DNA of 64,000 nt. It comes from Candidatus Hydrogenedentota bacterium. GTDB lineage: Bacteria; Hydrogenedentota; Hydrogenedentia; Hydrogenedentales; SLHB01. Location: the NCBI GenBank assembly GCA_963745075.1, contig CAVUWV010000008.1, forward strand, positions 352,001 to 416,000, written 5' to 3'. The position numbers and the translations under genes are program-made. The notes below the pieces were generated by a model. It had not been told where the DNA came from. It saw nothing but the letters and a program-made list of their open reading frames with translations, and did not search any database. Of this stretch, positions 13,893-59,511 are shown in pieces; positions within the stretch are counted from its first letter, which is position 1; every line of letters begins with the position of its first letter.

Positions 13893-13903
13893 AGCGATTC
13901 GTC

Positions 13904-13993
13904 AATGGGACCGATGGGACCCATGCGACCTATTGGCCATCAAAAGCATCGATGTCTGGTTTTATAGGTCTCATTCGTCTCATAGGTCCCATT
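13904..13993. repeat. Inverted cassette of 9-nt period repeats between convergent genes
   Basis: aatgggaccgatgggacccatgcgacctat ... ataggtctcattcgtctcataggtcccatt. Confidence 0.75.
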
Positions 13994-13997
13994 GCAT

Positions 13998-14703
13998 TCA
14001 CGGATTCGTCCCCCAGATATCCATGTCCCGAATCAGCGTGCGCCCCGGCAGGCACGCCATGTGCACGACAGTCGCCGCGATGTCTGCCGCATGCAGGTGA
14101 AGTCCCGGTCCATGGGCGGGCCCATTATCCTCACCGGTGTTGACCGCGCTCGGATTAAGCACCATCACCCGGATATTGTGTCGCCGCACCTCGTAGATCA
14201 GCGCCTGCGAAAACCCCTGCAATCCGAACTTGCTCGTTGCGTAGGCGGCCGCGCCCCGGATCGCCCTTCTTTCCGCTCATGGAACTGATCATGAAGATGT
14301 CGCCGCGCTCCTTCGCGATCATCCCGGGCAGAAACGCCTTCGTCGTAAGAAACACGCCCGTCAGGTTCGTCGCGATCACTTCGTTCCAGTACTCCAGCGG
14401 CAATTCGGCCACTGGCGCACCAAGAAATGCCGCGGCGTTGTTCACGAGAATATCGAGCGCACCCAGATCGCCGGTCACGGCTTTCGCCAACTGTTCAATC
14501 GCTTCCGGGTCGCGCTGATCGCACACATAGGGGCGGCACCGCGCACCGATACTCTCCGCCGATGCGGTAATCGTGTCGCGGTTGCGGCCCGTAATAGCCA
14601 CCGTCGCCCCTGCCTCGTGCAACGCGCGGGCGATATGTTTGCCGATGCCCCGGCTCCCGCCGGTAACCAGCGCCGTTTTTCCGGAGAGGTCATTCTGTTG
14701 CAT
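13998..14703 (-). CDS. Short-chain dehydrogenase/reductase; frameshift near 14255
   Basis: TGGSRGIG, LVNNAA; C-terminus in ORF 13998..14222. Confidence 0.88.
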
Positions 14704-14707
14704 GGGG

Positions 14708-15528
14708 TTACTCCTTGTGCGCGTTCAGGGCGTTGATTAGATCGCCGGAATCGAAGACAAATCCGAACTGCACGGAAACCCGCCACAGCCCCAGGTCCTT
14801 GGCAAGTTGATGCCGCGCCGTTTCCTTCATTTCAACCGCCGTGGTTGCGTCGCGAATCACCGAACACAACACGCCGCGACGATGCATGTCCATCATGCCA
14901 CCCGGCGACGTGAGTAGACACGCGTCCACCGCGAATCCCATGTAGATAAGGTGATTGATCCCGTGTGCCTTGCACAGCGCAAACAACTGATGCGTGTCAT
15001 GCGCAATGGGTTCGTTCGCGAGGGGGTGCGCTTCCGGCGCAAAATCGAGGTGCGCGAACCCGCGGTCGATGTCTTCCAGATTGTCCCGGCCGGGGTACGC
15101 GTGGTCCCGCTTGAACGCGAGCAATGCGTCGCGCACCGGGTCGCTCGGGACTTTCTCTACGTCATCGGATCCGGACTGGCCAGTTCCCGCGTTTGCGCGT
15201 AGCCCGGCAGATTCTTGTAGTACTCGTCGCCGCCCACCACGTGAAACAGCGGCAAGGGGGAGCGCCGGACCGCGGCCAGCAGCGGAGGAAACACCCGCCA
15301 CCCGATCTCCGCCGCGCGCGGGATATACGGCACCGCCCGGTGCCAACCCGGAAACCGCTCTTCATCGCCGCAGTCCCACGCGTGCATGACCGCAACGGCC
15401 GTATGGTCCGGTGCGATCTCAATATCACTACGTTGCCACCCCCCGAACCCCTCTTCGGGCACGTCGCGCGAAAAGTCCGCATCGAAGTGCTGGTAGTAAT
15501 ATGCGGGCAACCGAATCGTCGTTGACAT
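14708..15528 (-). CDS. Cysteine hydrolase / isochorismatase-like protein; frameshift near 15165
   Basis: TAVAVMHAWD, HLIYMGFAVDACLL, IRDATTAVE over two frames. Confidence 0.7.
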
Positions 15529-15647
15529 CGTGCACTCCTCAAGCAGCGCCCCTGTCGGTAACCCCATTTCGCCACGGATACCGCTGCACGATCAACTGCT
15601 CGGGCAAAGTTACGCCCAACCGTCATCCGGGCGCCAGCTTACCACTC

Positions 15648-15792
15648 ATCGTAATCGTGCTCGTTATCGTAATCGAATTGGACTTCCGTGTATCCGCCAA
15701 TAGAAGCACAACACCCGGAATCGGGAAGCTGTAATTTTCGCGATAAATGGAGGTCAATTGATTACGATTACGACAACGATTACGAGCACGAG
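15648..15792. repeat. Inverted hexamer (TCGTAA/TCGTAC-like) microsatellite cassette
   Basis: atcgtaatcgtgctcgttatcgtaatcg ... gattacgattacgacaacgattacgagcacgag. Confidence 0.75.
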
Positions 15793-15869
15793 TTGGGCAA
15801 GGTCTGGCTCGATCGTTGCCAATGGTTCGTGGCACCGCGCGTGCTTTGCTCGGGCTATTCTACCGCGCC

Positions 15870-17584
15870 ATGTTGAACTACCCGACGCAAGCCGTCAGAA
15901 TCTCGCCCATGCTGGATCGCGTCGATAAACCCGTTCCCGAGCCGTCCCGCGAGCCCGGGATCCCTCCGCCGCCACCCTCGGGCGCATGGCGGATGCTCCT
16001 CGAGTACATCCTCTGGACGGCTCTGTTTCTCGCGGGCGTGGCTGATTCTGCACCTGCTCAAACTCGAAGCCATCGACGGCCACGCGACGCCCTTCTACGC
16101 GCTTCCTTCGTCCCCTGCACGAATCGTGGGCCGAAGTGCTGGCCCTCTTCCCGATCATCGTCGTTCCTGCGTATCTGATGCGCGGTGTATTGACGAGAAG
16201 ATGGGCCCCCGGGTGGGGATGGGGCATCCTGCTTGCCGTCGGACTTCATCGCGCCGTGCGCTTTCGTCGCCGAGGTCTATTACGCAAAGACCGGCGGCGA
16301 CGACTATTCGTTGGTTCGCGCTGGCGCGATCGCAACCGTCGTGTTGACGCGCGACAGCGTTCCCGTTCTCATCGCCGAAGCGGGAATCTCTCTCGGCCTC
16401 CTGGGGTTTCGTCATCTCCGCAAAGGCGACCGAAGCCTCTCCGTACCGTGTTCCTATGCCTGTTCCTGCTGGGCGCCATGGCGTGTCTGTTCTTCTTTTC
16501 CGGCGCCATCGCCGAACTCCGACGGAGTTCCGAGCCGTTGACCGACGGCATCACCAAGGCCTACAGCCGAACCACGCAGGAATACATCGCCGACATCGGC
16601 AAGGGCGACACCATTCACGGATTCATGGAGAACTTCATCGCGTTGCACCCCATACTGTCCCACCACCAGCGCGTGCACCCGCCGGGACCGACGATTCTGT
16701 TGTGGTTGCTATCGTTCCTGGTCGGCCGCGGCACGCTGGCCTTGTCCCTCGCCACCATGGCCGGCGCGACGTTGTCGCTCGTTCCCTGTTTCCTGTGGGC
16801 CCGCGAACTTGGCGGCGGACGCATGGGTCTCGTCGCCTGCGCCATCTTCGTCTTCTGTCCCGGAATCGTCGCTTTCACCGCGACCAGCGCCGACATGCTT
16901 TTCATGCCGTTCACGCTCATGGCGTTGTTCCTGTTCGAACGCGCCGTGCGCCGCGAATCCTGGCTGGCCGCGCTGGGCAGCGGGATCTTCTACGCCCTCG
17001 CGGTCTTCTGCTCGTTCAACATCATGTGCATCGGGTTCTACTTCGGACTCGTTGGCCTCTGGGAATTGCGCGACCGCGAAGGACGATTCCCCATCATTCG
17101 CACCGCCGCGCTCATGCTGCTTGGATTCGTGGGTACTTACGGCCTCATGTACCTCTGGTCGGGATTCAACATGATCGACTGCTTCCTCGTCGGCTGGCAG
17201 GAGCAGCGCTTTGATCTTACCACCCAAACCAACCGCTGGGCCGCCCCCTGGTGGCGCTTGTTCCATCCGCTGTCGGTCATCTACTACGTCGGTATCCCCG
17301 TGACGGTTTTGCTTGTCCAGCGGCTGTACCGGCCCGACGCCATTCAGCACCCCACCTTCGTGATGATGGTGCTCACTTTCCTCTTCCTCAACGCCGTCGT
17401 CCCCGCCCGCGGCGAAATGGAGCGCACCGGCCTCTACATGTACCCCTTGCTCATCGCCCCCGCCGCCCACCTCCTAACCACCCGCTGGCAGCAATCCCGT
17501 TCCGAAGCCCCCCTCGCCGTCGCGCTCGGCTTCCTCGCGTTCCAATGCTGGCTGACCGAGTATTTGTTCTGGACCTACTGGTGA
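15870..17584 (+). CDS. Polytopic membrane protein, GT-C (PMT/ArnT-like) glycosyltransferase candidate; 5' part frameshifted
   Basis: Many TM segments, HPPGP motif and terminal GEMER motif in ORF 16136..17584; N-terminal TM fragments in other frames. Confidence 0.6.
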
Positions 17585-17602
17585 TGAGCGAAGCGGCGGA
17601 CG

Positions 17603-17650
17603 CAAATTCGAAATCCAAAACAAATTCGAATGACCGAAACGGGGAAATGT
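17603..17650. repeat. TTCGGATTTCGAAT-family repeat (inverted relative to 18010-18062)
   Basis: caaattcgaaatccaaaacaaattcgaatgaccgaaacggggaaatg. Confidence 0.8.
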
Positions 17651-17775
17651 CAGAAACAAACTGCAATCCGGTCCGATCATGGCCGACAACATTTGCGCGC
17701 AATTCGAGGTTGCCCGTAACCGCCTCCTGCCACGTCGCACGAACCCAAAAATCGCCTCAAAGTCGGGAAGTTCTT

Positions 17776-17898
17776 GCAGGACGGGAATGGTTCCCGTCCA
17801 GTCCTTCCTGATAGACCCTATGCTCGGCCGCCACCCATCGGTATTTTGGCGGACTTACTCAGCCAGAACTCCCGGGACGGAAATCATTTCCGTCCTAC
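17776..17898. repeat. Second inverted GTAG-REP pair
   Basis: gcaggacgggaatggttcccgtcc (17776-17799) and ggacggaaatcatttccgtcctac (17875-17898); same family as 3893-4036. Confidence 0.8.
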
Positions 17899-18009
17899 TT
17901 AGGCTGCCCTCGGCTTGCAAGCCGTAGGACAAGAGAACGCCCGCCATCCACCAGTGCAATCCGAAATCTCAAACCTGAGATACTGCGCGACACGGCCAGT
18001 GTGCGCCGT

Positions 18010-18062
18010 TTCGGTCATTTCCCCTTTTGGTCATTCGAATTTGTTTCGGATTTCGAATTTCT
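18010..18062. repeat. TTCGGATTTCGAAT-family repeat
   Basis: ttttggtcattcgaatttgtttcggatttcgaattt next to the stop at 18066. Confidence 0.8.
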
Positions 18063-18065
18063 CCC

Positions 18066-20225
18066 TCAAGGCAACGTCAGATTCACCGAAACCTCCCCGC
18101 CGTCTGCAACTTGGACATGCTCCGTCGCGATCCGGGTATTGGGAACATTCTGGGGAGTTCCGCTCACCCCCGCAAAGGCGAGCACGGTGTATTCGCCGGG
18201 TTCGATCTCGTCCATATGGAAGGTGCCATCGGGTTGTACCACGCCGCCTCCGATGTAGACTTGTTCGTTGTCCCACCAAAAATCGTGGTCCACGGAGTCA
18301 ATCTGCAGATCGCCACGGAAAACGGCAACGTTGGGCTGGTAGGCGGCGTTCTCCCAGCTCACGGTGCCCGCAATCGCGGCGCCACCCGTGAATTCAACAT
18401 CGTGCCGTGTCACTTGGCCGTCGGAAACATCCACCAGGGCGGAGCGGAATCGTATGCCCTTGTCCGGGGTCTGATAGCTCGCACGCAGGACGGCGTCACC
18501 CACGACCACCCCTTCAAGACGGTAGTGCCCCCTCTTGTCGGCTTGGCCGCCAAAACCTTCTACGATACCCGAAGGGCCGGCGACCGACACGCCGATCGTA
18601 GCACCGGTGACGGGTTTTCCGTCCTTGGTGACGAAACCTTCGACCGTTGCAGTCCCGCCAGCGAGCGCGAAGTCGACGGTGGTCACTTCGCCTTTGGCGA
18701 CGATGGCTTGTCGGCGGGCGCTGTGGCTGGAATCCTTTTGTCGAATGAGAGCGAACACGCGAACGGTGCCTTCAGGAACTCGTTCAATCGAGTATTTACC
18801 GTTGCCGTCCGTCTGTGCGCTCGCACTTCGGTAGACACCCTCTAAGCTATCCACGCTGACGGTTTGCCCCGCTACCGGCTTTCCCGCAACGGTAACATGG
18901 CCTTCAACCGTACCGCCGCGACTGAGTTCGATGGTCACCTGCGTCGTTTCACCGAACGTTACGCTGATCGGCGCCACGCCGGACACGTAGTCGCTATGCA
19001 CCGCTGACACCTTCGATACATCCGGCGCAACCGACGCGATTTGGAAACGCCCGTCCTCGTCCGAGACGGCGGCCGATTCGACATCGTTAGGCGGCGGGCC
19101 GGCCGGCGGGTTGCCAAGGTAGATCCACGCCTTGGAAATTGGCTGACCATCCTTGTCAACAACCCTGCCTTCAATTGTCGCGCCGGGTTCCATTCGGATA
19201 AGTACGCCCGAGACGGTCGCACCTTCACGCACATGCTGGACCACTTGCTGCGTCGTGACGAGTCCTTCCGCCGCCGCCACCACGTAGTTGTCCACGGCCT
19301 CCGCGTTGTCGAGATGGAAATTGCCCTGGGGATCGGTAACGATCGACAAGCGCCCCCGCTCACCGGGCCTGTTCAGATTGAACGGCGAGGACGATGCCCC
19401 AATCTGATACGTGGTGACGGGTTGGCCGGTTCTCGCGTTAATCACGCGGCCCTCGATGCTGCCCCTGCCCGTCAAGGTGAAATTCACGTTGGTCGTATCG
19501 GCTTGGACCGGGTCGCTGACCAGGTAGGTGTAGTCGTGGTGCGACACGAGGATGTGATACGTGCCTTCAAGCAGGTCGTTGAACCGGTAGGCGCCGTTTT
19601 CGTCGGTGTGCGTGTTTCTGACGCCTTCATTGCGGCCATTGTCGGCATTGACCGCCGCGTTCGGAATCGGTTCGCCGGAACCGTTCGTCACGGTACCTGA
19701 AATGAAGTGAATATCCTCACCCGGATACACCAACCGCAGGTCCGCTATCGTCTCATTCGCCGAAACCGTATAACGCCCCGCCGGTTGATCCTCGTATCGG
19801 GGACGCCTAAACGTCAAGTCATACGTTCCCGCGGGAAGACCACGAAGTCGAAAGGCGCCGTCTGTATCCGTTTTCGCACCGCGGATGGCGTTTTCCTTCG
19901 GGCCCTCGGCTGGCACCGCTCCGATGGACATCCTTTCCATGGGTCTCCCGAGCTTGTCAACGACGGTGCCCGCCAACGTAGCGCCCGCATTCGTTGCGTC
20001 GGGCGCCGGCTTCTCAACGTCGGGGTTGGCGACCTCCTCCGCAGGCGCGTTCACGGAATCAGCCGCGCCGGATGCTACGGATACTGCAGCCGGCGCCTTC
20101 GCCAAGTCCGATTTTCCGGCGGGCCTATTGAAAGCGCCCCCGAACAACAGTGCCCACACTGCGACGAGCACCAGGACGGTCACTACTGCGATAACCACTA
20201 AGCGTGTTCGCTTGACTCCAGCCAT
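18066..20225 (-). CDS. Membrane-anchored carboxypeptidase-regulatory-like repeat protein
   Basis: N-terminal TM anchor; repeated G.V.D..G.P and TD.NG.Y motifs; 719 aa. Confidence 0.88.
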   Translation of the reverse strand: MAGVKRTRLVVIAVVTVLVLVAVWALLFGGAFNRPAGKSDLAKAPAAVSVASGAADSVNAPAEEVANPDVEKPAPDATNAGATLAGTVVDKLGRPMERMSIGAVPAEGPKENAIRGAKTDTDGAFRLRGLPAGTYDLTFRRPRYEDQPAGRYTVSANETIADLRLVYPGEDIHFISGTVTNGSGEPIPNAAVNADNGRNEGVRNTHTDENGAYRFNDLLEGTYHILVSHHDYTYLVSDPVQADTTNVNFTLTGRGSIEGRVINARTGQPVTTYQIGASSSPFNLNRPGERGRLSIVTDPQGNFHLDNAEAVDNYVVAAAEGLVTTQQVVQHVREGATVSGVLIRMEPGATIEGRVVDKDGQPISKAWIYLGNPPAGPPPNDVESAAVSDEDGRFQIASVAPDVSKVSAVHSDYVSGVAPISVTFGETTQVTIELSRGGTVEGHVTVAGKPVAGQTVSVDSLEGVYRSASAQTDGNGKYSIERVPEGTVRVFALIRQKDSSHSARRQAIVAKGEVTTVDFALAGGTATVEGFVTKDGKPVTGATIGVSVAGPSGIVEGFGGQADKRGHYRLEGVVVGDAVLRASYQTPDKGIRFRSALVDVSDGQVTRHDVEFTGGAAIAGTVSWENAAYQPNVAVFRGDLQIDSVDHDFWWDNEQVYIGGGVVQPDGTFHMDEIEPGEYTVLAFAGVSGTPQNVPNTRIATEHVQVADGGEVSVNLTLP

Positions 20226-20374
20226 TGTCCCCCCGTGTAGCTCGACCGACTTGTTTTACAAGCCGGTCCCACCAGCTGTGTCTCACTGATACGTCAAATT
20301 CGCCGAAACCCCCTCAACGCCCGAGGCCGGACAAGCTCCGTCGCGTCGCGAGCATAGGTTCGCCGTTTCGGCTC

Positions 20375-20435
20375 TTTCCCCATTTTGGTCATTCGAATTT
20401 GTTTCGGATTTCGATATTCGGATTTCGAATTTCCC
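20375..20435. repeat. TTCGGATTTCGAAT-family repeat
   Basis: ttttggtcattcgaatttgtttcggatttcgatattcggatttcgaattt next to the stop at 20439. Confidence 0.8.
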
Positions 20436-20438
20436 TCG

Positions 20439-23400
20439 TCACGGCAGCGTTAATCGCGCCGAAAACTCCCCATCGCCCGAAACGCTCACGTACTGCGTCC
20501 CAACGCGGGCGTTAGACATGTCCGGGGTCGGGTCACCCGCAAAACCGACGGCCACGACCGTATAGTCCCCGGGGCTCAAACCGCCCACGCGGAAACTTCC
20601 GTCGGGCTGGACCATGGCGTTGCCCACGACCAGTTGCTGATTGGCCATCCAGAAACTCTGATCGATGGTGGTGATCTGCATTTTGCCGGACACGATGACG
20701 ACAAACGTCCGCCCCTCCTGCGACGCGCCGGACACGGTCCCCGCGATCGTCGCCCCCGCGTTGACGTCCACGTCCTGTTGCACCACGCGCCCGTCGACCG
20801 CGTTCACCTGGACCGTTCGCGTCTGCCACTCGTTTTCGGATGCCTGGTAGGCCACGCGCAGCGTGGCCGCTCCCGCGGTCATGCCCTCGATCCGGTAGAA
20901 TCCGTTCCCGTCGACCTGGCTACTGAAGTTCTCCACCGCGCCGGTCGCTCCGGTGACCGACACGGACACCTGCCCCTGCGGCACAGGTTGGCCACCCATG
21001 GTCACATACCCCTCGATGGTCGCGTTCCCGCCCGCAAAGTCGAAATCGACCACGGTCACCTGGTCTTCGGCAACGATCGCGGCTTGATTTGCGCTGCGGT
21101 TCGAATCGCCCTGCCGCAGGTTCACGACTACGATAACGTCACCTTCCGGGATTCCCTTGATGGTATACGTGCCGTCTGCGCCGGTCTCGCCATACTGGGG
21201 CTGCCCGCCGGTGTTCTGGCGCTGAACGTATACGCGCTGGCCACTCGCCGGTTGCCCCGCGACCGTGACCCGGCCCTGGATGGTGCCACCGCCGCCCAGA
21301 CGGATCGTCACCTGCGACGTGCCGCCCGGTGTGACGGTTACCAGCTCGCTTCCGGGTGCGAAATCGCTGTGGACGGCCGACACCATCGTGGTATCGGGCC
21401 CGAGCGAGGTAATCTCGAAGGTGCCATCGGCGCCCGACGTGGCGACCATTTCGCGATCCATACGCCACTGATCGCGTGGCGCCCCACCGAGGTAAATCCG
21501 TGCGCCCGAAACTGGTTGGCCGCTCGAATCGGTGACCAGACCGTCGATGGTCGCGCCCGGATCCAACTTGAATAGAATCCCGGAGACCGTCGCGCCCTCG
21601 CGTACCCCCGTGACCGGCTGTTGCGACGGCGCGTAGCCTTCCGCCGTGACCGCCACGTAGCCGTCGCCCGCTTCAACATTGTTCAGCTTGAAGTTGCCGT
21701 CGGGATCCATAAACGCCGTGAGGTTCCCGTACATGGCCGGCGTCGCGAGGTTAATCTTGCCGCCAAATGAGCCCACTTGGAACTTCGTCACCGGCTGGCC
21801 CGTTCGCGCGCTGACCACGCGGCCTTCGATGGTCCCCCTGCCGGTCAATACAAAATTGACGTTGGCCGTGCCGGCCTGAACTCCCTCTTTGTTTTGATGG
21901 GTGTACTCGCCGTGATAGGCGTAAACGCGGTAAGCGCCCTCCTCCAGGCCCGAGATGGTATACGTGCCGTCCTCATCCGTATTGGCATATCCATACCCGC
22001 GGCCCCGATCCAATTGAGCGTTGATGCTCGCGTTACGGAGCGGTTCGCCGGCGCTGTTCGTGACGCGCCCCGAGATCGTCAGTCCGCCCGCCTCCTCATA
22101 CACTACTTTGATGCCGGTCTTATGTTCGCCCTCGCCGACGGTCACCTCGGTACCCGCCTGCGCCCCTCGGTTGCTATACGAGTTGTACGGCCGGACCCGA
22201 ATCCGGTACGTCGCAGCCATCAACCCCTGAATCTTGAATTTGCCGTCCGCGTCCAGACTGGCACTTTGCGCCTGCGCCTGTTCCCCGTTCGACACCGGTT
22301 CCGCCGTCACGCTGGCTTGTTTCATCGGATTGCCCGTCGCGTCGACCACCACCCCGGCGATGCTGCTGCCGGACCCCATCACGATCTCGACGCCGTTCAG
22401 GTCCGTTTCGCCGATTTCGAGCGGTCCCACCGGTGCGGCCGAATAGCCCGCCTTGGTCGCCGTGATCATGATCTTCTGGTTTCCCGAATACCCCCGGTGT
22501 TCGAACGTGCCGTCTTCGCCGGTGTTCGTATCCTCACCCTCGCCGTTGTCCGTCATCGGCGAACTCGAAACGTGGGCGAACTCGATCGGGTTCCCGTCCT
22601 CATCCACCACGCGGCCGCGAACGAGCAATCCGTACTTCATCGGGAAATCGATGTCCGGCGTCGTCTTCCCGAGTTGGACGTTCACCTTCTTGTCCTCCCG
22701 GCTTTCACCGTGAAGGTATCCAAGCATCCAGTTACGGTGGATCGTATGTGGTCCCTCACCCAGGCCTTCAATCTTGTAGATTCCATTTGCGTCCGAATGG
22801 GCCTGGCGCTGCGGGGTCGCGCCCCCATCCGGTCGGGCACTGATTCGGACGTTTTTCAACGCCTTGCCGGAATCGAACGTCATACGCCCGTCCGGTCACG
22901 ACGCCGCCTATAGCCACGATAAGCCGGAGATCGTCCACGCTGTCGCCCCCGGCAATGGTAAACTCCGGCGGCTTGCCCGAGAGCAGGCGCGTGTCATCCT
23001 CGATCGCGATCCGGTACTTGGCGTCGGCCAGATGCGGAAGCTCGAATCGGCCTTCCTCATCCGTCTTGGCTTCATCTTCGGCGCGTGGCACGTCGCTGGA
23101 TGCAACGACTTTAATGTCGGGGATCGGGTCGCCCGTTTCCGCCGCGACCACTTCGCCCGTCGCATGGCCGCCCGGGCTCAGGACCAGTTCGGCATCCAAG
23201 GTGCCCACCGGAATGTAGTCCGACGCGAGGACGGCATAATTCTCCGCCTTCACGGTCAGTTGCCAGGCGCCTTCCCAGAGATGCGGCAGGTAAAACGTGC
23301 CGTCGTTGTTGGTCGGCACCTGGGCGGCCATGCCGATGGACCCACTCATCCGGTTCCGCTCGTCTTGCGTCTTTTCCGGGTATACCCGCGCGTCCGCGAC

Positions 23401-23988
23401 CGGTTCTCCCGCCTCGTTTATCACGAGGCCAGCGATAGCCCCGGCGGGTTTCATCGTGATGTCCACCACGTCCAACAACTCGTCATCGGTAATCGTGGCC
23501 CCGCCTATCCCGAACAGGTCGTCCGTCGATGCAAGGATCGCGAAGTAACCGTACGGTATCCGTTTGAATTCGTAGGTGCCGTCCGCAGCCGTTTCAGCCT
23601 CCCAGTGGGGACCGTCCTCCAGTTGCTCGCCTCCCGTACCTGCTTCGGTGGTCAGGACGATCCTGACCGTGGCATTCGCAACCGGCGCCTCGCTGTCCGC
23701 CAGTTTCACCGCGCCTTTGATCGTGCCGTTGCCCGTGCGGCGCGGGGCGCGCGGATCCGAGTCCGCCCGCGTGCGGTCGCTACTCACCTGGAAGGGACTC
23801 GCCGGGCGCGCCGCCGTCCGGTCCTCGGTGGGGGCGGGCTCCCCCTCGGGTTCCACAGGTTCGGGCGTAGAAACGGTTTGCGCAACCTCGGTTGTGTCGC
23901 CGCTACGGCCGCTCAAGAAGTACCACGCGCCGCCCACCGCGGCTACGACCAGGACAATCAGGATCCCAAAACGAATATTCTCGTTCAT
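20439..23988 (-). CDS. Larger paralogous carboxypeptidase-regulatory-like repeat protein; frameshift near 22880
   Basis: ORFs 22768..24024 and 20439..22883 join at VTGRAYD/FDSGKAL; collinear with the 18066..20225 protein. Confidence 0.88.
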
Positions 23989-24316
23989 CGGTTCTCCCCA
24001 GTTGGACCGGTTGGAAGCACACATCCCCCCTATATAGACGCACCAGCAAGGCCTTTGGTGACCTTATGGCGCTTTCCGCAAAAGCCGATCGACCGCCTGT
24101 TTCAGTCCCTGATTCTACTAGTGATGACAGATTCTGTAAAGCCTTCCCGGCAGGCCAATCGCACGTAGACGGTCGGTGTGGGAGCGGTCTCAGGAATTCT
24201 TGACGGGCATTTAACCCGGGATCGCTAAGTTTACGGCAGCGTCGCACCGGATGAACGGGGCGCCACTGGGAGCGCCGGGCGCCAGCCTGGCGTAACTTCA
24301 AACCATCGGCGGCTGC

Positions 24317-24346
24317 TTGACTTGCGCACTCGAAATACGCTATTGT
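24317..24346 (+). promoter_or_regulatory. Putative sigma70 promoter for rpsD
   Basis: TTGACT-18 bp-TATTGT. Confidence 0.5.
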
Positions 24347-29687: not shown

Positions 29688-29747
29688 AATTGACTCCTTC
29701 TTCCTTGACGAGGGCGTTACTCGTGACCCATCGCGCCCTGCGCCAAC

Positions 29748-29992
29748 CAAATTCTAAATCCGAATCCCGAAATCCGAAACAAATCCAAATGATCGAAATT
29801 CCAATCACCAAAACGGTGCGCAGAACTCATGATTGGGAGACCGTTCTGTCGTTACCCGCATTCAGGGACCACAGCATATACACAAGAACCCGATATCCCG
29901 AAGTCCGGCCTATAGTGTCTTTGGGTTTTGGTCATTCGGTATTAGAACATTCAAATTTGTTTCGGATTTCGTGCTTCGAGTTTCGGATTTCA
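29748..29992. repeat. Inverted pair of TTCGGATTTCG-family repeats inside the crcB-DUF190 operon
   Basis: aaatccgaatcccgaaatccgaaacaaat...accaaaa and ttttggtcatt...aatttgtttcggatttcgtgcttcgagtttcggattt. Confidence 0.8.
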
Positions 29993-29997
29993 TCTAA

Positions 29998-30375
29998 TCA
30001 AATCGTTCTGCCTACGGCAATACCCAGGAAAAGCGCCCCGATGCCCGCGACGACTTGGAGCATCACATTTCCACACGCGGCCAGCAATTCCGAGTCCGCC
30101 AGCAGTTGGCCCGTTTCCGACGCAAACGTGGAAAAGGTGGTAAAGGCCCCCATGAACCCCACCAACAGCACCGTCCGTGTATCACTGCCGAGCCACCCCC
30201 GCTCCGCAGACGTCGTCCATACCATACCAAACAGGAAGCAGCCCAGCAGATTTACGACCGCCGTCCCCCAGGGGAACCCGGCCCCAAGATAGCGTTGCAC
30301 CGCCCCCGCCATGCCGTATCGCGCCAGGGCCCCCATGCCGCCACCCATCGCAATCAACATCAACTTCTGTAACAT
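29998..30375 (-). CDS. crcB: Fluoride efflux channel FluC/CrcB
   Basis: GGGMGALARY, FPWGTAVVN, GFMGAFTTFSTF. Confidence 0.96.
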   Translation of the reverse strand: MLQKLMLIAMGGGMGALARYGMAGAVQRYLGAGFPWGTAVVNLLGCFLFGMVWTTSAERGWLGSDTRTVLLVGFMGAFTTFSTFASETGQLLADSELLAACGNVMLQVVAGIGALFLGIAVGRTI

Positions 30376-34463: not shown

Positions 34464-34583
34464 CTACGGCACCAGCGCCAGGTAATACGTGGTCACAAAC
34501 ACCAGAATCAAATACAGGGGATACAGGAGTTGGCCGAGTACACCGGAACTCAGCATTTGCAACAGTTGCGTGAAATCAATCAT
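34464..34583 (-). CDS. 39-aa hydrophobic small protein (below ORF-track cutoff)
   Basis: MIDFTQLLQMLSSGVLGQLLYPLYLILVFVTTYYLALVP*, with AGGGAGG RBS at 34594-34600. Confidence 0.6.
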   Translation of the reverse strand: MIDFTQLLQMLSSGVLGQLLYPLYLILVFVTTYYLALVP

Positions 34584-37372: not shown

Positions 37373-37399
37373 GGATTCCGCTTGTCTCCGTTTTATCAA

Positions 37400-37496
37400 C
37401 GTCCCAAAAGATCTGAAGGACCAAAGGGGCCAAAAGGACTCCACTCGATCTGCGGCCGTTGAGGTCCTTCTTGTCCTTTAGGTCGTTTCTTGTCCC
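37400..37496. repeat. Inverted 9-nt period cassette between pncB and nadE
   Basis: aaggaccaaaggggccaaaaggac ... gtccttcttgtcctttaggtcgtttcttgtccc. Confidence 0.65.
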
Positions 37497-37521
37497 GCCC
37501 CCATTCTACACGCCCGCGTCG

Positions 37522-51154: not shown

Positions 51155-51173
51155 CCCCAGTCTGTCCCTCTTT

Positions 51174-51890
51174 TTAGACGTAGTCCCGGAAGCGGGCCAA
51201 TAAGGGCCGCAGCGCCCGCTCCGCCCGGACCACGCGCGATTTCACCGTGCCCACCGGTGAATCCGTGACCTGGGCGATTTCTTCATAGGAAAGGTCTTGG
51301 AACCGCCGCAACACAAACGCTTCACGCTGATGTTCCGGGAGTTCCTTGAGCGCCGTGTTCACCGCCTCCGAAATCTCGCCCCGCTTAAACGACATCACCA
51401 CGTCGGCACTCTCGTCGCCCACGTGCTCCAGCGGGTCGAACTCGTCTTCCGGGTTTCTGCGCCAACTCCACCCCGAAGACAAGCTCAGGAATTTCGGACG
51501 CCGCTTACGCCGCACCCATTCCTTCGATACAATATTCGATGCAATTGTATACAGATAGGTCGTGAACTTTGCCGTCGGCTGATACCGCTGAGCGTTGCGG
51601 ACCAATGCCACAAACACCTCCTGCGTCAGCTCCTCGGCAATATGCCGGTTTTGCACCATCCGGAATATGTAGTTCAGCACACCTTTCTGATGTCGACGTA
51701 CCAATTCGGCGAATGCGTCTTCCGAGCCCTTGCCATGCTCCAGCATGAGCGCCTCGTCCGACCATTCCTTGAGGGGAAGCCCTTCCGGTCCCAGCACCCG
51801 AAGTCGCTGCTTCCCGGGAAATGGAGTAACTTGTCCGAGTCCTTCCGCCATGGCTCCCCTGCTTTCGCCGTGTAACTCATCGAACTGCAT
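51174..51890 (-). CDS. ECF RNA polymerase sigma factor
   Basis: AEELTQEVF, FTTYLYTIASN, LSYEEIAQVTDSPVGTVKSRV. Confidence 0.94.
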   Translation of the reverse strand: MQFDELHGESRGAMAEGLGQVTPFPGKQRLRVLGPEGLPLKEWSDEALMLEHGKGSEDAFAELVRRHQKGVLNYIFRMVQNRHIAEELTQEVFVALVRNAQRYQPTAKFTTYLYTIASNIVSKEWVRRKRRPKFLSLSSGWSWRRNPEDEFDPLEHVGDESADVVMSFKRGEISEAVNTALKELPEHQREAFVLRRFQDLSYEEIAQVTDSPVGTVKSRVVRAERALRPLLARFRDYV

Positions 51891-52065
51891 ACTTCTATAC
51901 CTTACGCTACGAGAAAGTTCCCCAATGGACCTACCGCTTTCAGACGAGACCTTACCCGCTTCGCTTCAAACATACAGTATAACAAAGTTGAAAAAATTCA
52001 ACCATTCTTCTCTTTGTTAATAGTTAATAGGGCTCCTTTGTCGTAAGTCATTATATATAAAATAC

Positions 52066-53111
52066 TTACTCTGAAATCGCCTTTGCGTTCCGTACGTGCG
52101 CGATCGCGTCTTCGTACGAAATGATCCCCTGCATGTACAACTCCTTGACGCTGCGATCCATCGTCACCATGCCTTCCTTGGTGTTCGTCTCCATAATGCT
52201 GTACACCTGATGCGTCTTGCCCTCGCGGATCAAATTCGCCACCGCCGTGTTGTTGATGAGCAGTTCGCACGCCATGATCCGCCCTTCCTCGTCGACCCTT
52301 GGCAACAGCCGCTGCGACATCACCGCCAGCAGCGTCATGCTCAGCATGAAGCGAATCTGCTGCTGCTGCGCCCCCGGGAACACGTCGATGACCCGGTCTA
52401 CCGACTGGATCGCATCATTCGTGTGGAGCGTGGCCAGCACCAGGTGCCCCGTCTCCGCCGCGCGCAAAGCCGCCTGGATCGTCTCCAGATCCCGCATCTC
52501 GCCGATCAGAATCACGTCCGGATCCTGCCGCAGTACATATTTCAGCGCGTTGATGAAGTCCGTCCGTATCCTGCCCGACCTCGCGCTGGTCCACAATGCT
52601 CTTCTTGTGGGTGTGAACGAATTCGATGGGATCCTCGACCGTAATCACGTGGCATTCCCGCGTATTGTTGACCCGGTCGATGATCGAGGCCTGCGTCGTC
52701 GTTTTCCCGTGTCCGGTCGGCCCTGTTACCAGAACCAATCCCTGTTTAGCCTGCGCAAACTTGGACACGACATCCGGCAAACCCAGATCTTCAAGCTGCG
52801 GAATCTCCTCCGGAATCGGGCGAAACGCCGCCGTCACCGCCTGTTTCTGCAAGTACACATTGACACGAAACCGGTGCTTGCGCCCCACCGCCAGCGAGAA
52901 ATCGAGCTCTTTATTCGCTTCAAAGTGCTTCTTCTGCTCCGCAGTCAGCACCGCGTAGATCATCTTCTTCGTTTGTTCCGGAGGTCAGCGAGTCGCCACG
53001 CGTGCGGAAGAGTTTGCCATTCTTGCGGAGGACCGGAGGTGCACCCGCGCTGATCAGCAGATCAGATGCATTTTCCTTGGTCACTAAATCGAAGAGTTGC
53101 TTCAGTTCCAT
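52066..53111 (-). CDS. pilT: Type IV pilus retraction ATPase PilT/PilU; frameshifts near 52980 and 52565
   Basis: GPTGHGKTTT, ITVEDPIEF, LRQDPDVILIGEMRD, AETGHLVLATLHT. Confidence 0.9.
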
Positions 53112-53234
53112 CTCGGTCCTTTCCCGTCGCGCTGCGGAAGATTCTCCAAAACCACCCAATCCCACGTCATCATACCCCAAGCGATGACTCCGCGCAATAG
53201 GGGTGACCACAACCTGTTGTGGTTTGGCAGGAGG

Positions 53235-54107
53235 TCAGTGGATATAGACGACTTCTTCCTCGAGCGTGACCCCAATCGCTCGAAAACCGTCCGCTTGCAT
53301 AAGTCGATGAGCCAGAGGATGTCCGCGCACGTCGCATTGTCCTCATTCATGATGAAATTCGCGTGCAGCGGACTGATGATCGCCCCACCCCGGCGGGTCC
53401 CCTTCAGATCGCAGGACTCGATCAGACCGGCCCGAATGGTCCCCCTCGGGATTCTTGAAAACGCTCCCGCAACACTTGCCCTGCGGCTGCTTCTCCTTGC
53501 GGCGCTGAATGTAGCGGTCGTAGATGGCTTGCTGGTCTTCAGCCGCCCGGCTGAACCGGAACGTGCCCCCTAGAATCAGCGAGCCCCGCGGACAGAACGT
53601 CTGACCCCGGTAGCTGTACAGCGATTCGTCCATCGGAATGCAACGCAGACCCTCCGGCGTCGCCACGTCCACCGACTCCATCAACATGCACGTCGAACCC
53701 TTGTTCGTCCCCGCATTCATATAGATCGCGCCGCCCACCGTGCCCGGAATTCCCGTCAACCCGCCAACGAGGTCGTAGTTGTTCGCCAGCATCACTTCCC
53801 GGACCATCCGGTCCAGCACCACCCCCGCCAGCACGTGGTACCGGTCATCGCCCAGCGCCTCGATGCCGTCCAGCTTCGTCGTGACATAAACGATCCCGTC
53901 GAATCCTTTGTCATCGATCAACACGTTCGACCCGCCGCCCAGCACGATATGCCGATCCGGCTGTTGCGCCATCCACCGGTACGCTTCGCTCGCCTCATCC
54001 AACGTTCGCGGCAACAACGCCACCCGCGCCGGACCCCCCACCTGATACAACGTCAATGGCGCCAGCGGATACTTCTCCATCGCAAATTCAAACGGCAATG
54101 TTTCCAT
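53235..54107 (-). CDS. murB: UDP-N-acetylmuramate dehydrogenase; frameshifted in the 3' part
   Basis: VGGPA, LGGGSNVL, GIPGTVGGAIYMNAG, GSVFKNP; C-terminus VTLEEEVVYIH* in another frame. Confidence 0.9.
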
Positions 54108-54167
54108 GCAGAGAGGATACAGGAAGAACGACAAGAGTTCCCAACGCCAAACAGATCCTCCCTCCCT

Positions 54168-54201
54168 CTCGTGCTCGTACTCGTAATCGTACTCGTAATC
54201 G
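54168..54201. repeat. TCGTAC/TCGTAA hexamer run
   Basis: ctcgtgctcgtactcgtaatcgtactcgtaatcg. Confidence 0.8.
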
Positions 54202-54269
54202 CTCGCCCCCCTTGCGCCATCGGACGCCATCGCGTACGGTTTACCATCAGAAAACGGGGGAGACGCCGC

Positions 54270-55320
54270 ATGCCGAACGAAACCATGACGCCACGCGAAC
54301 GCTGGCGGGCCGTCCTCGATCGCAAACCACCCGACCGCGTGCCCATGGACATCTGGGCCACCGACGAAGCCTGGACCCGCCTCTGCGCCCACCTCGACTG
54401 CGACCGCGCGGAAGTCTGCCGCCGGCTCCACATCGATCTCCCCGTGACGCTTGAACCCACCTACACCGGACCGCCCCTGACCGACGGCCGCGATATGTGG
54501 GGCATGACCTACCGCGACGTCGACTACGGCACCGGCGTCTACGCGGAATGCGCGTCCCACCCCCTGGCCGACTTCACCAGCGTCGACGAAATCGACGCGA
54601 ACTACACCTGGCCCACGGCGGACTGGTTCGACTTCTCCCAACTGCCCGCCATCGTCGAGGCCAACCGCGACCGGCCCATTCGCGGCGGCGGCTCCGAGCC
54701 TTTCCTCGACTACAAAAATCTGCGCGGCGAAATCCAGGCCTTCACCGACCTCCTCGTCAACCCCGACATCGTCCACTACTGCCTCGACAAGATGTTCGAC
54801 GTTCGCCTACGAGATGACGCGCCGCATCTTCGAGACCGTCCCCGGCGCGGTGATGATCACCTACGTCGCCGAAGACCTCGGCGGACAGGACAACCTCATG
54901 TATTCGCCGGACCAGATCCGCGAGTTCTTCCTGCCCGGCATGAAACGCATGATGGACCTCACCCGCGAACACGGTTCCTACGTCTTCCACCACACCGACG
55001 GCGCCGTCCGCGAAATCCTGCCCGACCTCATCGACGCCGGTATCCAGGTCCTCAACCCCATCCAATGGCGCTGCCGCGGCATGGACCGCGAAGGCCTCAA
55101 ACGCGACTTCGGCGACCGCCTCATCTTCCACGGCGCCGTCGACAACCAGCACACCCTCCCCTTCGGCACGCCCGACGACGTCCGCAACGAAGTCCGCGAC
55201 AACCTCCGCATCCTCGGCCACCACGGCGGCTACATCCTCGCCCCCTGCCACAACATCCAGGCCGTCACGCCGCCGGAAAACATCATCGCCATGTACGAAA
55301 CGGGGTATGAAGAGGGCTAA
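54270..55320 (+). CDS. Uroporphyrinogen decarboxylase (URO-D/MtaA-like) family protein; frameshift near 54805
   Basis: MTPRERW...PDRVP, HTDGAV, LNPIQ, GYILAPCHNIQ..TPPENI. Confidence 0.88.
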
Positions 55321-55386
55321 ACCGGAGCCTTTTCTGAAGAAAAGGCTCCCCAGACCCCTTCCAAAAGACTCTTGGTGGCTTGCTTC
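55321..55386. repeat. Palindromic cassette, copy 1 (copy 2 at 57585-57655)
   Basis: ggagccttttctgaagaaaaggctcc-ccagacccc-ttccaaaagactcttggtggcttgcttc. Confidence 0.85.
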
Positions 55387-55463
55387 CAAGAGCGTGGGCA
55401 TGACGATGCCTAATGCGTGAGGTCGATGTCCACCATCGATGTCTTGACCGAAACCGACACCTT

Positions 55464-56565
55464 CTAACCGTACCTCCTCCGCCAAGACTTCCGACTCCCC
55501 CGCCGGGACGTTCGCAAACGCGTAATGCCCCGCATCATCCGTGTGGACCGACTGCCACGTGAACCCTTCACTCCGCAGCAGCACCAGCACGTTTGCCGCG
55601 GTCCCCGTCGCGGGTGACCGTGCCTTCCACGCGGCCACCCGGCGTCAACACGATTCGCGCGACCGCTCCGCCCGCCTTCTTCGTCTTGACCGTGGCGACG
55701 CCCGGCGCGTACCCGGAATGGTATGCGACGATCGACGGCGTCTCGTCCGGTGACGTCTCCACTTCGAACGATCCGTCCGCATCCGTTTCCGCGACTGCGT
55801 AATCCTCGTGATTGCCGCCCGCCGGCGTCATCGCGTCCAACACAATCTTCGCACCCGCGACCGGCTTCCCGTCCCCGTCGACGACCGTCCCCTTGATCAC
55901 CAGCGACCGCACCAGCGGCACCACCATCCCGCCGATTTGCGCGCCGACCTGGTCGTTCGCGAACCGCACCAGAAACGGCTGATACCCCGGCGCGCGAAAC
56001 ACCACCGCCGGTAGCCGCGACTTGTAGACCGGAATCGTGAACCGCCCCTTCGCATCCTCCACGCGCGTCACCGGTCGGTTCGGCGTCCGTCTTCACACCT
56101 CCAACCCGAAACGCCTCCGTGTCCCAGACCTCCGCACAGTCAAACGCCGGTAACGGCCGCCCCGACTCACGGTCTACGACTACCCCCTCGATGGTCACCC
56201 GTTCCGTCATGATTGACGTGACCCCTTCCCACTTGTGCTCCATCCGCGTCGACGCCGTCACGCTGTACTAAGGTCTTCCGCCACCACCGAATACACCCCA
56301 ATCGCGGTGTTCTCATACGCGTACGCCCCGTCCGCATTCGCCGTAACGTGGTTGATCCCCTCCGGCCCGAACACCAACACCGCCGCCCCCGGCACCGGCC
56401 GCTGCTTCCCATCCAACACCTCCCCGCAATCGACACCTGCGTCCGCCCCGCAAACTGCGCCAGCGCGTCCTCCAACCCCGCCGGTTCCGCCGCATCCGAC
56501 ACGGCACACCACCCCACCGCGGCCATCACCGCAACGATCCCTATCCAACATCGCACCAAGTTCAT
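55464..56565 (-). CDS. Exported carboxypeptidase-regulatory-like repeat protein; several frameshifts, 3' end uncertain
   Basis: Signal peptide; IEGVVVDRESGRP, IKGTVVDGDGKPVAGA, TDADGSF across four frames. Confidence 0.65.
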
Positions 56566-56743
56566 CGTCCACCACCCATACCAAGATCTTATCACGCCGC
56601 TCTGTAGCGCAGGCGTCCCGCCTGCATCTTCGCAGGTCTTCATACTACTCCGTCCCGGCAATCTCTGGTCCGCTTGCACCGTCTCTGCTAAACTCAATCG
56701 CGTCGTGCCTCTTCCAACGAAGCACTACACAAGGGGAGCAACC

Positions 56744-57577
56744 ATGATCCGGCTTGGCGCGCCCGTTTTTGGGCGGTTTGAAGATCCGCGCGACTTGGCG
56801 CGGCGGCACCGGCAACTGGGGTACCGTGCCGCGTACGCGCCGGAGATCGATATCGCCGACGAAGAACTCGTCCAAGCCGTGCGCGACGCCTATGCCGCGG
56901 AAGACGTGGTGCTCGCCGAGGTCGGCGCGTGGTGCAACATGCTCGCCGTCGATTCCGCGCAACGCAAGGCGAACCTCGACCACGTCTGCAAATCCCTCGC
57001 CCTCGCCGACGCCCTCGGCGCACGGTGTTGCGTGAACTACCTCGGCACCCGCGATCCCGATTCCGACTACGGTCCCCATCCCGCGAACCTCACAAACCAA
57101 ACCTTCGACCTCGCCGTCGAGACCATTCGGTTCGTCATCGACACCGTCAAACCCTGGTCCGCCCGGTTCTGCCTGGAAATGATGCAGTGGGTCCTGCCCG
57201 ACAGCGCCGCCGCGTACCGCCAACTCATCGACGCCGTAAACCGTCCCGCCTTCGGCGCGCACCTCGATCCCGTGAACATCATCGTGTCGCCGCGCATGTA
57301 TTTCGACACCGGCGCCGTCATCCGGGATTGCTTTCACCAGTTGGGACCGTGGATCGTGTCGTGCCACGCCAAGGACATCGTGTTACACGGCGACCTCGCC
57401 CTGCATCTCGACGAAGTCCGCCCCGGCCTCGGCAACCTCGATTACGCCGCGTACCTCACCGAACTCGCCCGCATGGACGGACCCGCCCCCCTCATGCTCG
57501 AACACCTCGACACCGAAGAAGACTACTGCCTCGCCCGCGACTACATCTTCTCCGTCGCCGCCGGGTTGGAGTTGTAG
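56744..57577 (+). CDS. Sugar phosphate isomerase/epimerase (TIM barrel)
   Basis: LEMM, HLDPVN, HAKD, PGLGNLDY, MLEH. Confidence 0.88.
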   Translation: MIRLGAPVFGRFEDPRDLARRHRQLGYRAAYAPEIDIADEELVQAVRDAYAAEDVVLAEVGAWCNMLAVDSAQRKANLDHVCKSLALADALGARCCVNYLGTRDPDSDYGPHPANLTNQTFDLAVETIRFVIDTVKPWSARFCLEMMQWVLPDSAAAYRQLIDAVNRPAFGAHLDPVNIIVSPRMYFDTGAVIRDCFHQLGPWIVSCHAKDIVLHGDLALHLDEVRPGLGNLDYAAYLTELARMDGPAPLMLEHLDTEEDYCLARDYIFSVAAGLEL

Positions 57578-57584
57578 ATGGAAG

Positions 57585-57655
57585 ACCGGGGGGAACCTTT
57601 TCTGAAGAAAAGGTTCCCCCGGACCCCCTCCAAAAGACTTTTGGTGGCTTGCTTC
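57585..57655. repeat. Palindromic cassette, copy 2
   Basis: gggggaaccttttctgaagaaaaggttccccc-ggacccc-ctccaaaagacttttggtggcttgcttc. Confidence 0.85.
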
Positions 57656-57814
57656 GCAAGCGGACCGACAATGCCGGCTACTTCTTCACCCCCTTCGCGT
57701 CGAGTGTTCACGGTGAAGCCACGAAGAACAGTCCGGCGAGTGTTCATGAAAATGCGCCAAGATGAAGATTCCATGACGACGCGATTCACGCAAATGCACG
57801 ATGCTTCCTTGTAC

Positions 57815-58020
57815 GCGCTGAAAGCGTGAAACAACCCTAGCCCAGGGCAGAGCGAAGCGGCGCCCTGGGCATGCGGCAACCACCCATCTGCGTAGCCCTG
57901 AAAGGGCGAAACAAGAACTACGCGCCGGCTCCTCCAGAGCTATCATCATTCAAAACAACCAAAAACCAGGGACGTCGCTTCACTTTGCCCCTGGCTAGAA
58001 TTGAGCGGCGCTTTCAGCGC
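57815..58020. repeat. MITE/REP-like element with long imperfect inverted ends
   Basis: gcgctgaaagcg...ctagcccagggcagagcgaagcggcgccctgg / ccagggacgtcgcttcactttgcccctggctag...cgctttcagcgc. Confidence 0.75.
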
Positions 58021-58206
58021 CATGATCAAACGATCTTGATCTTGAATCATAGAACGCGGCATCGCGTTCGCTATACTGGCCCCGGACGGGCCGAAGGAAA
58101 CTAGTCACGCCACCGGCCTGATGAAGCCGAAGGCGTAACCCTGGGTCGACAGGCCACCCCAACTCACACAGCCCCCGAACGGGGGCGCAGGAAACCCGCT
58201 TCCCCG

Positions 58207-59179
58207 CTACTTCTTCACCCCCTTCGCGTCAAGCACCTTGCCCCCGGCCCCGATATCGAGCGCCTTGCGCACGGCGAAATAATCCTCCCGCGACAACGTC
58301 TTGCCCAGCGCACCCGCCGCTTCCTCGATCTGGCTCGGCGTCTTGACGCCGCACACGGCCACGTGAATCGCGGGATGCATCAACGTGGCCGCCAGCACCA
58401 ACTGATAGATCGACAACCCGTACTTTTCCGCCAACGGCTGCAACGACTGCACCGCGTCGCAAATCGCTTTGAACCGGTCTCCCTGAAAATCGGGATGATG
58501 CTGCCGGAAATCCGAAAACGCTTCTGTCCCCGTATACTTGCCGGTGAGCAGCCCCTTGTGAAGCGGCGAATAGATCATCACGCCGATGTTCTCCGCCTGG
58601 CAATAGGGGAGGAGGTCCGCCTCGCCCTCCGGCGCGAGCAAACTGTACGCCGGTTGCGCGATGCAATAGTCCGCGAACCGGCGTTGCGCCCGGAACTGTT
58701 CCACGCTGTGATTGCTTACCCCGATGTACCGAATCTTGCCCTCGTCCCGCAGCGCGTTCAGCGTGTCCGCCACGTCCGCCAGCGGCGTGAGTTGGTCGTA
58801 GAAGTGTAATAGCGCCACGTCGACCGTCTCGATGCCCATCCGTTTCAACGACGCCTCGCACCGTTCCCGCAAATATGCCGGCGACAAATCCGGATACCGC
58901 GACGCGTCCGGATTGAAATGATTGAAGAACTTCGTGCAAATCACGATCTCGTCGCGCGGCATCCCCGCAATCGCCTCGCCCAACACCGTCTCCGCGTACC
59001 CGTCGCCGTAGGCGTCCGCCGTGTCGTAAAAGTTGACGCCCCGGTCGAACGCCAGCCGCATCGCGGCAATGGCGTCCTCCTTAGACTGCTCCCCCCAGAA
59101 CCGCGGACTCAACTGCCACGTCCCAAACGCGATTGGGCGAAACCGAAAGCCCGCTGCTGCCAAACGTTACGCGTTCCAT
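58207..59179 (-). CDS. Aldo/keto reductase; frameshift near 59135
   Basis: MERVTFG start in another frame; FYDTADAYG, GKIRYIGVSN, YSPLHKGLLTGKY. Confidence 0.92.
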
Positions 59180-59267
59180 GATCCCCACACTCCTTTCATC
59201 TTCTGCGATCTGTGCGTCCATCGAGAGTAGCCCCGCGATTCCGCGAATGTCTACCCCGCGCCTCTCA

Positions 59268-59412
59268 ATCGTACTTCGTGCTCGCTCTCGTACTCGTACT
59301 CGACAACACCCAAAGTCCTGACCGGTTGAAGAAATGCTGGGCCGGATTAACTGAATCCATTCTTTCACCGCAAGACGATCCGAGTACGAGTACGAAGTAC
59401 GAGAACGAGTAC
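59268..59412. repeat. Inverted TCGTAC-hexamer cassette flanked by direct repeats
   Basis: tcgtgctcgctctcgtactcgtactcg ... cgagtacgagtacgaagtacgagaacgagtacg. Confidence 0.8.
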
Positions 59413-59511
59413 GGAAAGCCGGCGACGATTGCACGAATGTCTACCCCGCACCCCGCCTCCCCACACAAATTTCTTCTTGACAAATAATACTTTGTGTGTC
59501 TAAATAGTGGC

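Follow-up and report, generated by a model that had tools for sequence, protein, structure and literature searches.

The question raised by a 64,000-nucleotide stretch of DNA from a Candidatus Hydrogenedentota bacterium (assembly GCA_963745075.1, contig CAVUWV010000008.1, positions 352,001 to 416,000; hereafter the window) is whether short repeat cassettes insert at gene 3′ ends and duplicate the terminal codons. A reading of the letters alone (the sequence-only reading) had noted, at several loci, a gene end with its stop codon, then a cassette, then a second copy of the same gene end, and had proposed a process that delivers cassettes together with a gene end. We found that such a gene-end scar is real, specific to the 3′ end and rare. 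It is likely a rare accident and not the normal insertion route of repeat cassettes.

The window (G000:C8:352001-416000) belongs to a 6.8-Mb assembly in 36 contigs (G000; loci below are given as contig:position of G000 unless another genome is named). Comparison genomes were G001-G005, G018, G100, G102 and G104, together with two contig sets from sequencing runs (X1, X2). Genes were predicted with a simple self-trained caller, the accuracy of which was lowered by frameshifts, and 4,470 genes were used. For each of 18 gene ends in the window, all 4,470 gene ends were scored on the same spacer to give the rank of the own end. The gene labels given previously to the window proteins agreed with Pfam, and a Pfam scan of 29 window proteins revealed no transposase or integrase, as had been stated. 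Two of the six duplications named before stood out, those of an aldo/keto reductase (AKR) gene and of a CarboxypepD-repeat gene (P1), with the own gene end ranking 1/4470 in both cases. A third, behind a uroD-like gene, was borderline, and the weaker cases at pncB, crcB and an SDR gene were at chance level. The remaining 12 gene ends were unremarkable (best rank 434/4470).

The AKR locus is organized as follows:
58207..59163, minus strand: AKR gene (PF00248, E=2.5e-67; start uncertain, 5′ part may be frameshifted)
58206..58230, minus strand: AKR gene end, first copy of a 25-bp exact repeat, stop included
57702..58205, unstranded: AKR insert, non-coding, 504 nt, a pile of repeats
57677..57701, minus strand: stranded AKR end, then the ancestral downstream flank

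The exact 25-bp repeat can be extended to 28 bp if one synonymous change is allowed. Behind the intact gene lies the insert, which holds a REP-like family (about 58080-58195) and an inverted pair (about 57810-58025) of a family that flanks RAYT genes. The stranded copy is followed by CCGG, as is the 3′ end of AKR in G018, G100, G102 and G104, and this shared flank fits a stranded copy that would mark the original site. A RAYT-type (Y1_Tnp) gene with the 57810-58025 repeat family also lies directly behind AKR in G002 (C25, about 6100-7150), there without duplication.

The second accepted case is found in a tandem arrangement of paralogues:
20439..22883, minus strand: P1, CarboxypepD-repeat gene (PF13620), its 3′ 814 codons
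20365..20432, minus strand: lone left arm of a TTCGAA-type inverted cassette behind P1, with no right arm before the stranded end
20283..20324, minus strand: stranded homologous gene end, SGVEGVSANLTYQ plus stop, matching P1 at 30/42 nt and P2 at 29/42
18066..20225, minus strand: P2, tandem paralogue of P1, 719 aa
17604..18061, unstranded: complete TTCGAA-type inverted cassette with a nested REP pair behind P2, without gene-end copy

The match first noticed here as SARLTLP-stop/SANLTYQ-stop proved to be longer, as the P1 end (20439-20480, SGDGEFSARLTLP plus stop) and the copy agree at 30 of 42 nt, ungapped and in register with the stop codon; the runner-up in the ranking was the paralogue P2. 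The counterpart of P1 in G002 and G003 is one gene of about 1,180 aa. G002, G003 and G004 each carry a single gene at the P1/P2 site, followed in G003 and G004 by a complete inverted cassette at the P1 site, while the order in G000 is P1, lone left arm, stranded end, P2 and complete cassette. We infer that one displacement event could give this layout if the donor had a single gene and its DNA was broken within the cassette; a third paralogue, now a remnant, would explain it nearly as well.

Genome-wide, gene ends were compared with the 1.5 kb downstream by a stop-anchored score over 60 nt. At a score of at least 14, matches were found in 5 of 695 cassette-bearing spacers (0.33 expected, 0 in the internal control) and in 3 of 2,118 cassette-free spacers (0.42 expected). 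Of the three cassette-free matches, one is a tandem duplication and the others, with high internal scores, look like uncalled paralogues; one of the five in cassette-bearing spacers has an addiction module, and no repeat, between the copies. Gene starts, scored as a control, gave 0/665 in cassette spacers and 3/2,670 in cassette-free ones. Among non-coding copies of at least 32 bits within 8 kb, gene ends had 12 downstream versus 1 upstream, starts 2 and 3, and middles 1 and 3. The expected enrichment over controls is thus present, but the footprint is confined to 5 of the 695 cassette-bearing spacers.

Shorter matches behaved differently. A 27-nt stop-anchored permutation test of cassette spacers (n=626) gave 12 cases at p<0.01 (6.3 expected) and 30 at p<0.05 (31.3 expected), and cassette-free spacers (n=2006) gave 28 versus 20.1 expected. 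Given this slight excess, short "conservative" copies are mostly chance. The 27-nt test undervalued P1, which led to the rerun over 60 nt. Orthologue ends of G002 and G003 showed no general excess of matches in spacers (320 pairs). When 960 genes of relatives were scanned, five downstream matches were obtained: two repeat overlaps, one tandem duplication and two clean scars, one in G002 and one in G003 (G005, 0/232).

Fourteen scar cases were compared in detail; a second set of 14 drops C8:153955 (0 synonymous, 4 non-synonymous changes) and adds P1. All are duplications with 3′/downstream polarity, and their inserts contained no recombinase of PF00589 or PF07508 (small serine resolvases, PF00239, were not searched). 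Repeat length varied from 17 to 249 nt, and most repeats end at or within a few bases of the stop codon. Synonymous changes were favored, with 55 synonymous and 42 non-synonymous codon changes over the 14 cases including C8:153955 (p=0.0025 against the 0.42 expected under neutral decay), and with 29 and 6 in four long cases picked after inspection. To judge from the sequences, the stranded copy in the long cases is another working allele and not a target-site duplication, being mostly synonymous, ending at the stop and lying downstream. This bears out the earlier argument from diverged, in-register copies, and in the true cases the gene indeed keeps an intact 3′ end upstream, with the old terminus stranded. 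The long cases lie outside the window; AKR offers one synonymous change only.

The clearest footprint was detected at argS (C31:229284-230437, assigned by Pfam), where a 92-nt end copy with seven synonymous changes and one non-synonymous change lies beyond a gene-free 1.06-kb pile of several unrelated repeat families. In the set that includes P1, repeats were detected in 4 of 14 inserts, one more hairpin was seen by eye (an ArsR-like case), and 9 of 14 carry gene cargo without a repeat. Repeats within 120 nt of a junction were no more frequent than background (3/14 versus 18.5%, p=0.50), and no common junction dinucleotide was visible. The inserts hold restriction-modification genes, an addiction-module gene, HEAT-repeat genes, unknown open reading frames (ORFs) or repeat piles. 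One scar target is a gene that we take to be comM-like. The events are single, apart from a three-unit array at C1:317-318 kb.

At C31:18950-21596, a BsuBI/PstI-type restriction-modification pair lies within a 249-nt gene-end duplication, with no integrase. At C20:149975-150115, a 113-nt hairpin insert splits an overlapping stop/start pair; its junction lies 3 nt from the hairpin base, and the 29-nt copy retains the start of the next gene. Outside G000, an SDR orthologue of G005 (C233, about 9100-10700) has a stranded 3′ end with three synonymous changes in the aligned 78 nt behind a 1.4-kb insert, which contains a 435-aa ORF without Pfam match. The SDR gene of G000 is unscarred.

Is the scar, then, the way in which cassettes move? 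The spacers of the window are rich in repeat families, and 14 window probes matched 2 to 128 loci each. The cassettes belong to many unrelated families, as had been noted. Cargo genes were found elsewhere in the genome for two of these families: GTACGA-hexamer arms enclose a four-helix-bundle gene (PF05635) at C32:109022, and the 57810-58025 family flanks Y1_Tnp (RAYT-type) genes at C1:342972, C10:502343 and C31:13141 and in G002. G000 has 15 Y1_Tnp genes above the cut-off. The arms in the window match those of the RAYT and four-helix-bundle elements, but the window copies of both families are empty versions. The cassettes as such are genuine mobile units. A second four-helix-bundle gene lies between inverted GATCCC-type hexamer arms beside a lone TTCGAA arm (C24:310050-310650), so that cassettes nest. 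No published account of four-helix-bundle arms was found in a limited literature search.

Three cassettes of the window could be compared with empty sites:
37405..37510, minus strand: 9-mer inverted cassette, pncB to nadE, plus the conserved motif TGTAGAAT (37503-37510)
29749..29990, unstranded: TTCGAA-type inverted cassette, crcB to DUF190 gene, absent in relatives, no significant duplication
62185..62350, unstranded: most abundant palindromic cassette of the genome, empty site in a relative, no gene-end copy

Neither the pncB-nadE nor the crcB-DUF190 spacer holds a cassette in G001 and G002, and in G003-G005 the pncB-nadE spacer has a 9-mer cassette of another kind. In X2, contigs of a close relative run past the crcB cassette, joining 29702 to 30011 with 15 letters between, and past the 62185-62350 cassette, joining 62132 to 62378 with one letter between. 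None of the three comparisons (pncB, crcB and 62185-62350) showed a significant gene-end copy at the filled site. Therefore, ordinary cassette gain does not duplicate gene ends, and the idea that cassettes insert by gene-end copying is not supported; about 99% of the cassette-bearing spacers are also without the footprint. The scars do not resemble target-site duplications either, as their repeats are of variable length and mismatched, do not abut the arms and are missing at empty sites; neither a fixed-length target duplication nor a CT junction rule was seen. Within the genus, species differ in the 9-mer or hairpin cassette that fills one and the same spacer (window 13893-13997 and 37373-37521), a replacement in place.

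We propose that the scars probably arose from DNA of a related strain that was homologous to the recipient over the gene end only and entered by a single crossover, pushing the resident end downstream. The donor fragment would consist of a gene end and whatever came next in the donor. It would be trimmed and circularized, and the circle would enter by a RecA-type single crossover, leaving the intact gene, the insert and the stranded end; a linear one-sided event could leave the same mark. Homology would end at the stop codon because spacers turn over fast between strains, in large part as cassettes come and go. On this view, cassettes often travel along and are a cause of one-sided homology, without driving the process. 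The 3′ bias may reflect survival, as a stranded 3′ end would be silent and the gene whole. A ComEC-type gene is present in the genome. In Escherichia coli, 56 of 60 clones obtained with DNA homologous at one end held partial duplications, formed when a trimmed circle entered by a single crossover; the duplications measured 109-950 bp in the 14 that were sequenced (PMC3240628). The earlier proposal that recombination delivers a gene end from another allele is supported by the long cases and is not supported as a cassette-delivery process, with 9 of 14 scars lacking a repeat and no enrichment at junctions.

Several points weigh against this origin. The AKR repeat, at 25-28 bp, is short for RecA, and its copy is nearly exact, so that a second allele is not evident from it alone. 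Many amino acids differ in the P1 copy, which is equally close to P2 and P1 and may therefore be a remnant of a third paralogue. Some of the 14 cases may be due to chance or to remnants of paralogues; in two of them, non-synonymous changes outnumber synonymous ones across at least 30 nt. Neither donor nor recipient alleles were found, and the crossover point and any circle are unseen. Within 1.5 kb, scars were commoner in cassette spacers (5/695 versus 3/2118, p=0.026), a comparison confounded by spacer length. A looser first scan gave an internal control as high as the gene ends (11 versus 9, score at least 13), because coding paralogues had not been excluded. Classical linear homology-facilitated illegitimate recombination (HFIR) mostly yields deletions, not duplications (PMC3240628). 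Its illegitimate joint has 3-10 bp of microhomology; the scars seen here are duplications and not deletions.

Among the alternatives, the scars could be traces of integrase-driven islands that brought a replacement gene end and later lost the integrase (cis-mobilizable remnants). Elements of this kind are known, such as e14 and phage 21 at icd, which restore the 3′ end of a protein gene, and CIMEs, their integrase-less remnants. The likeness is considerable: polarity is the same, a replacement 3′ end and a stranded old end differ by synonymous changes, and most inserts consist of 2.5-7 kb of accessory genes. Nevertheless, we hold this origin to be unlikely. The targets are about a dozen unrelated genes, several of them accessory, and the smallest inserts measure 113 nt. 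All four tyrosine recombinases (PF00589) and the one large serine recombinase (PF07508) of the genome lie outside the inserts. Neither a duplication nor a tyrosine-integrase match was found at 29 other argS and 10 other AKR loci within up to 1.5 kb, with the genome's own tyrosine recombinases as probes, and thus no nearby integrase and no recurrent site came to light.

A role for the cassettes themselves can be formulated in two ways. In the first, hairpin-specific single-strand nucleases encoded by a few full cassettes would cut incoming DNA, and circles of gene end plus cassette would integrate by one crossover, so that transposase-free cassettes of many families would move from strain to strain by hitchhiking on gene ends; we consider this improbable. 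If true, ordinary genes across the whole genome, argS among them, could gain genes and cassettes by C-terminal displacement as a general route that needs no integrase. In the second, which we judge to be still more doubtful, the hairpin-specific single-strand nucleases of the cassettes themselves (RAYT/HUH or Ssn-type) would cut or circularize DNA close to the repeat along with the adjoining gene end, and the cassettes would spread by gene-end anchoring. Short repeat piles make up the four non-coding inserts with detected repeats and the ArsR-like one seen by eye, a hairpin base is 3 nt away from one junction, and the genome has its 15 Y1_Tnp genes, with a RAYT of the same repeat family behind AKR in G002. 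TnpA-REP cleaves and recombines BIMEs in vitro, and circle models have been proposed (PMC3333891); SsnA cuts single strands near its own repeat and modulates transformation (PMC11893778). REP/BIME with RAYT and Ssn/NTS are, like the cassettes here, intergenic hairpin families, and the 57810-58025 family flanks Y1_Tnp genes; on the repeat side, the biology is that of REP/RAYT, with Ssn no more than a lead. Against such spread stand the background level of repeats near junctions, the nine repeat-free inserts, the unscarred cassette spacers, the three empty-site comparisons and the lack of a common junction dinucleotide. Moreover, in the available parts of these two papers, no link of REP/RAYT or Ssn to gene-end duplication was found, and IS200/IS605 transposases, which are related to TnpA-REP, make no target repeats (PMC3333891).

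A second gene end might also be left by duplication inside a single chromosome and a later partial deletion; at P1 it would be the remnant of a third tandem paralogue. The P1 copy, equally near P1 and P2, lies about 60 nt before the P2 start, the AKR repeat is nearly exact, and tandem duplicates occur elsewhere (a padR pair). As a general account this is very unlikely, since the synonymous excess of the long cases exceeds neutral decay, and the inserts, foreign to their sites, were missing from the orthologous sites examined. Assembly artefacts are hardly credible, even though several window genes are frameshifted, contigs of the relative differ by single bases at some of them and no contig bridges the AKR junctions (neither the AKR insert nor the P1 spacer is spanned by a joint in X2, a neutral result for contigs of a small share): read duplication cannot give diverged in-register copies, similar scars occur in other assemblies, and a 177-nt contig of X1, which may be the same sample, matches the AKR insert with zero differences.

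The footprint, for which the sequence-only reading had no named system to offer, does have a name. At rhs loci, C-terminal displacement begins with the crossover, via a proposed circle, of incoming DNA that includes a homologous gene fragment of variable length, and the old end is shunted downstream (Jackson et al. 2009, PMC2935791). Here, too, a homologous fragment of variable length is stranded downstream of an intact gene. At rhs, however, the protein tip is replaced and strings of tips accumulate at a dedicated locus, whereas here the C-terminus stays essentially the same, most events are single and what is new lies beyond the stop; an exchange of non-homologous tips in arrays at a polymorphic locus was not found. 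We conclude that the scar resembles rhs C-terminal displacement but is not an rhs-type locus, and that a new cassette-insertion system is not supported. One-sided homology, variable length and the lack of a recombinase are shared with single-crossover partial duplication/HFIR (PMC3240628) and with the displacement model for the Vibrio type VI secretion system (PMC5361080). The former used an E. coli conjugation substrate and gave repeats of 109-950 bp; here they are natural scars of 17-249 nt.

No published catalogue of gene-end scars at ordinary genes or beside REP cassettes was found, with most subscription journals outside the search. The scar offers a searchable mark of integrase-free gene gain, namely a mostly synonymous copy of the last codons just downstream. 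Of some 4,000 genes, about a dozen carry it, and the DNA enclosed includes defence and addiction-module genes. A count over many genomes would gauge how often one-sided recombination adds DNA and would test the input of REP-type nucleases.

The other named loci of the window comprise the following:
55323..55413, plus strand: hairpin cassette behind the uroD-like gene, including the GHDDA-stop segment (55396-55413), borderline and not accepted
57588..57676, plus strand: second copy of the uroD-side hairpin cassette, with the tail in common
13896..14010, unstranded: 9-mer inverted cassette, TIM-barrel gene to SDR gene
59244..59449, unstranded: GTACGA-hexamer inverted cassette (about 59261-59416) between 16-bp exact direct repeats

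Behind the uroD-like gene, GYEEG-stop and GHDDA-stop agree at 14/18 nt and rank 25/4470 ungapped and 388/4470 gapped, ranks that fall short of significance once 18 tests are allowed for. Each of the four codon changes is non-synonymous, and the segment overlaps the tail common to the second cassette copy. A duplicated gene end is thus no more than borderline here. The pncB end ranked 2087/4470; the supposed second copy sits ahead of the cassette and overlaps the TGTAGAAT motif, which is conserved in empty sites and may be an extended −10-like element. The crcB end ranked 1652/4470. The 40 nt after the crcB cassette, tried as a stranded end of the G001/G002 type, ranked 142/4470 gapped, are absent from the empty site of the close relative and were rejected. 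At the SDR gene, re-ranked after correction of ends, an 8-nt repeat (13896 and 14003) stops short of the stop codon, with ranks of 4470/4470 stop-anchored and 739/4470 gapped. The 16-bp exact repeat at 59244 and 59434 (21/23 when extended) is real, intergenic and not a gene end; four other genome copies of the 59261 cassette have no flanking repeat.

Frameshifted genes were observed at 14000-14703, 22768-24024, 52066-53111, 53343-55320 and 55400-56700 of the window. The relative's contigs show single-base differences at 15168, 22876, 52982 and 53233, suggesting indel errors in the assembly. GC skew is negative across the whole window (1-64000) and stronger toward its right end. A small hydrophobic ORF of 39 aa (34464-34583, minus strand) between glmS-like and DinB-like genes is conserved in G002 and G003.

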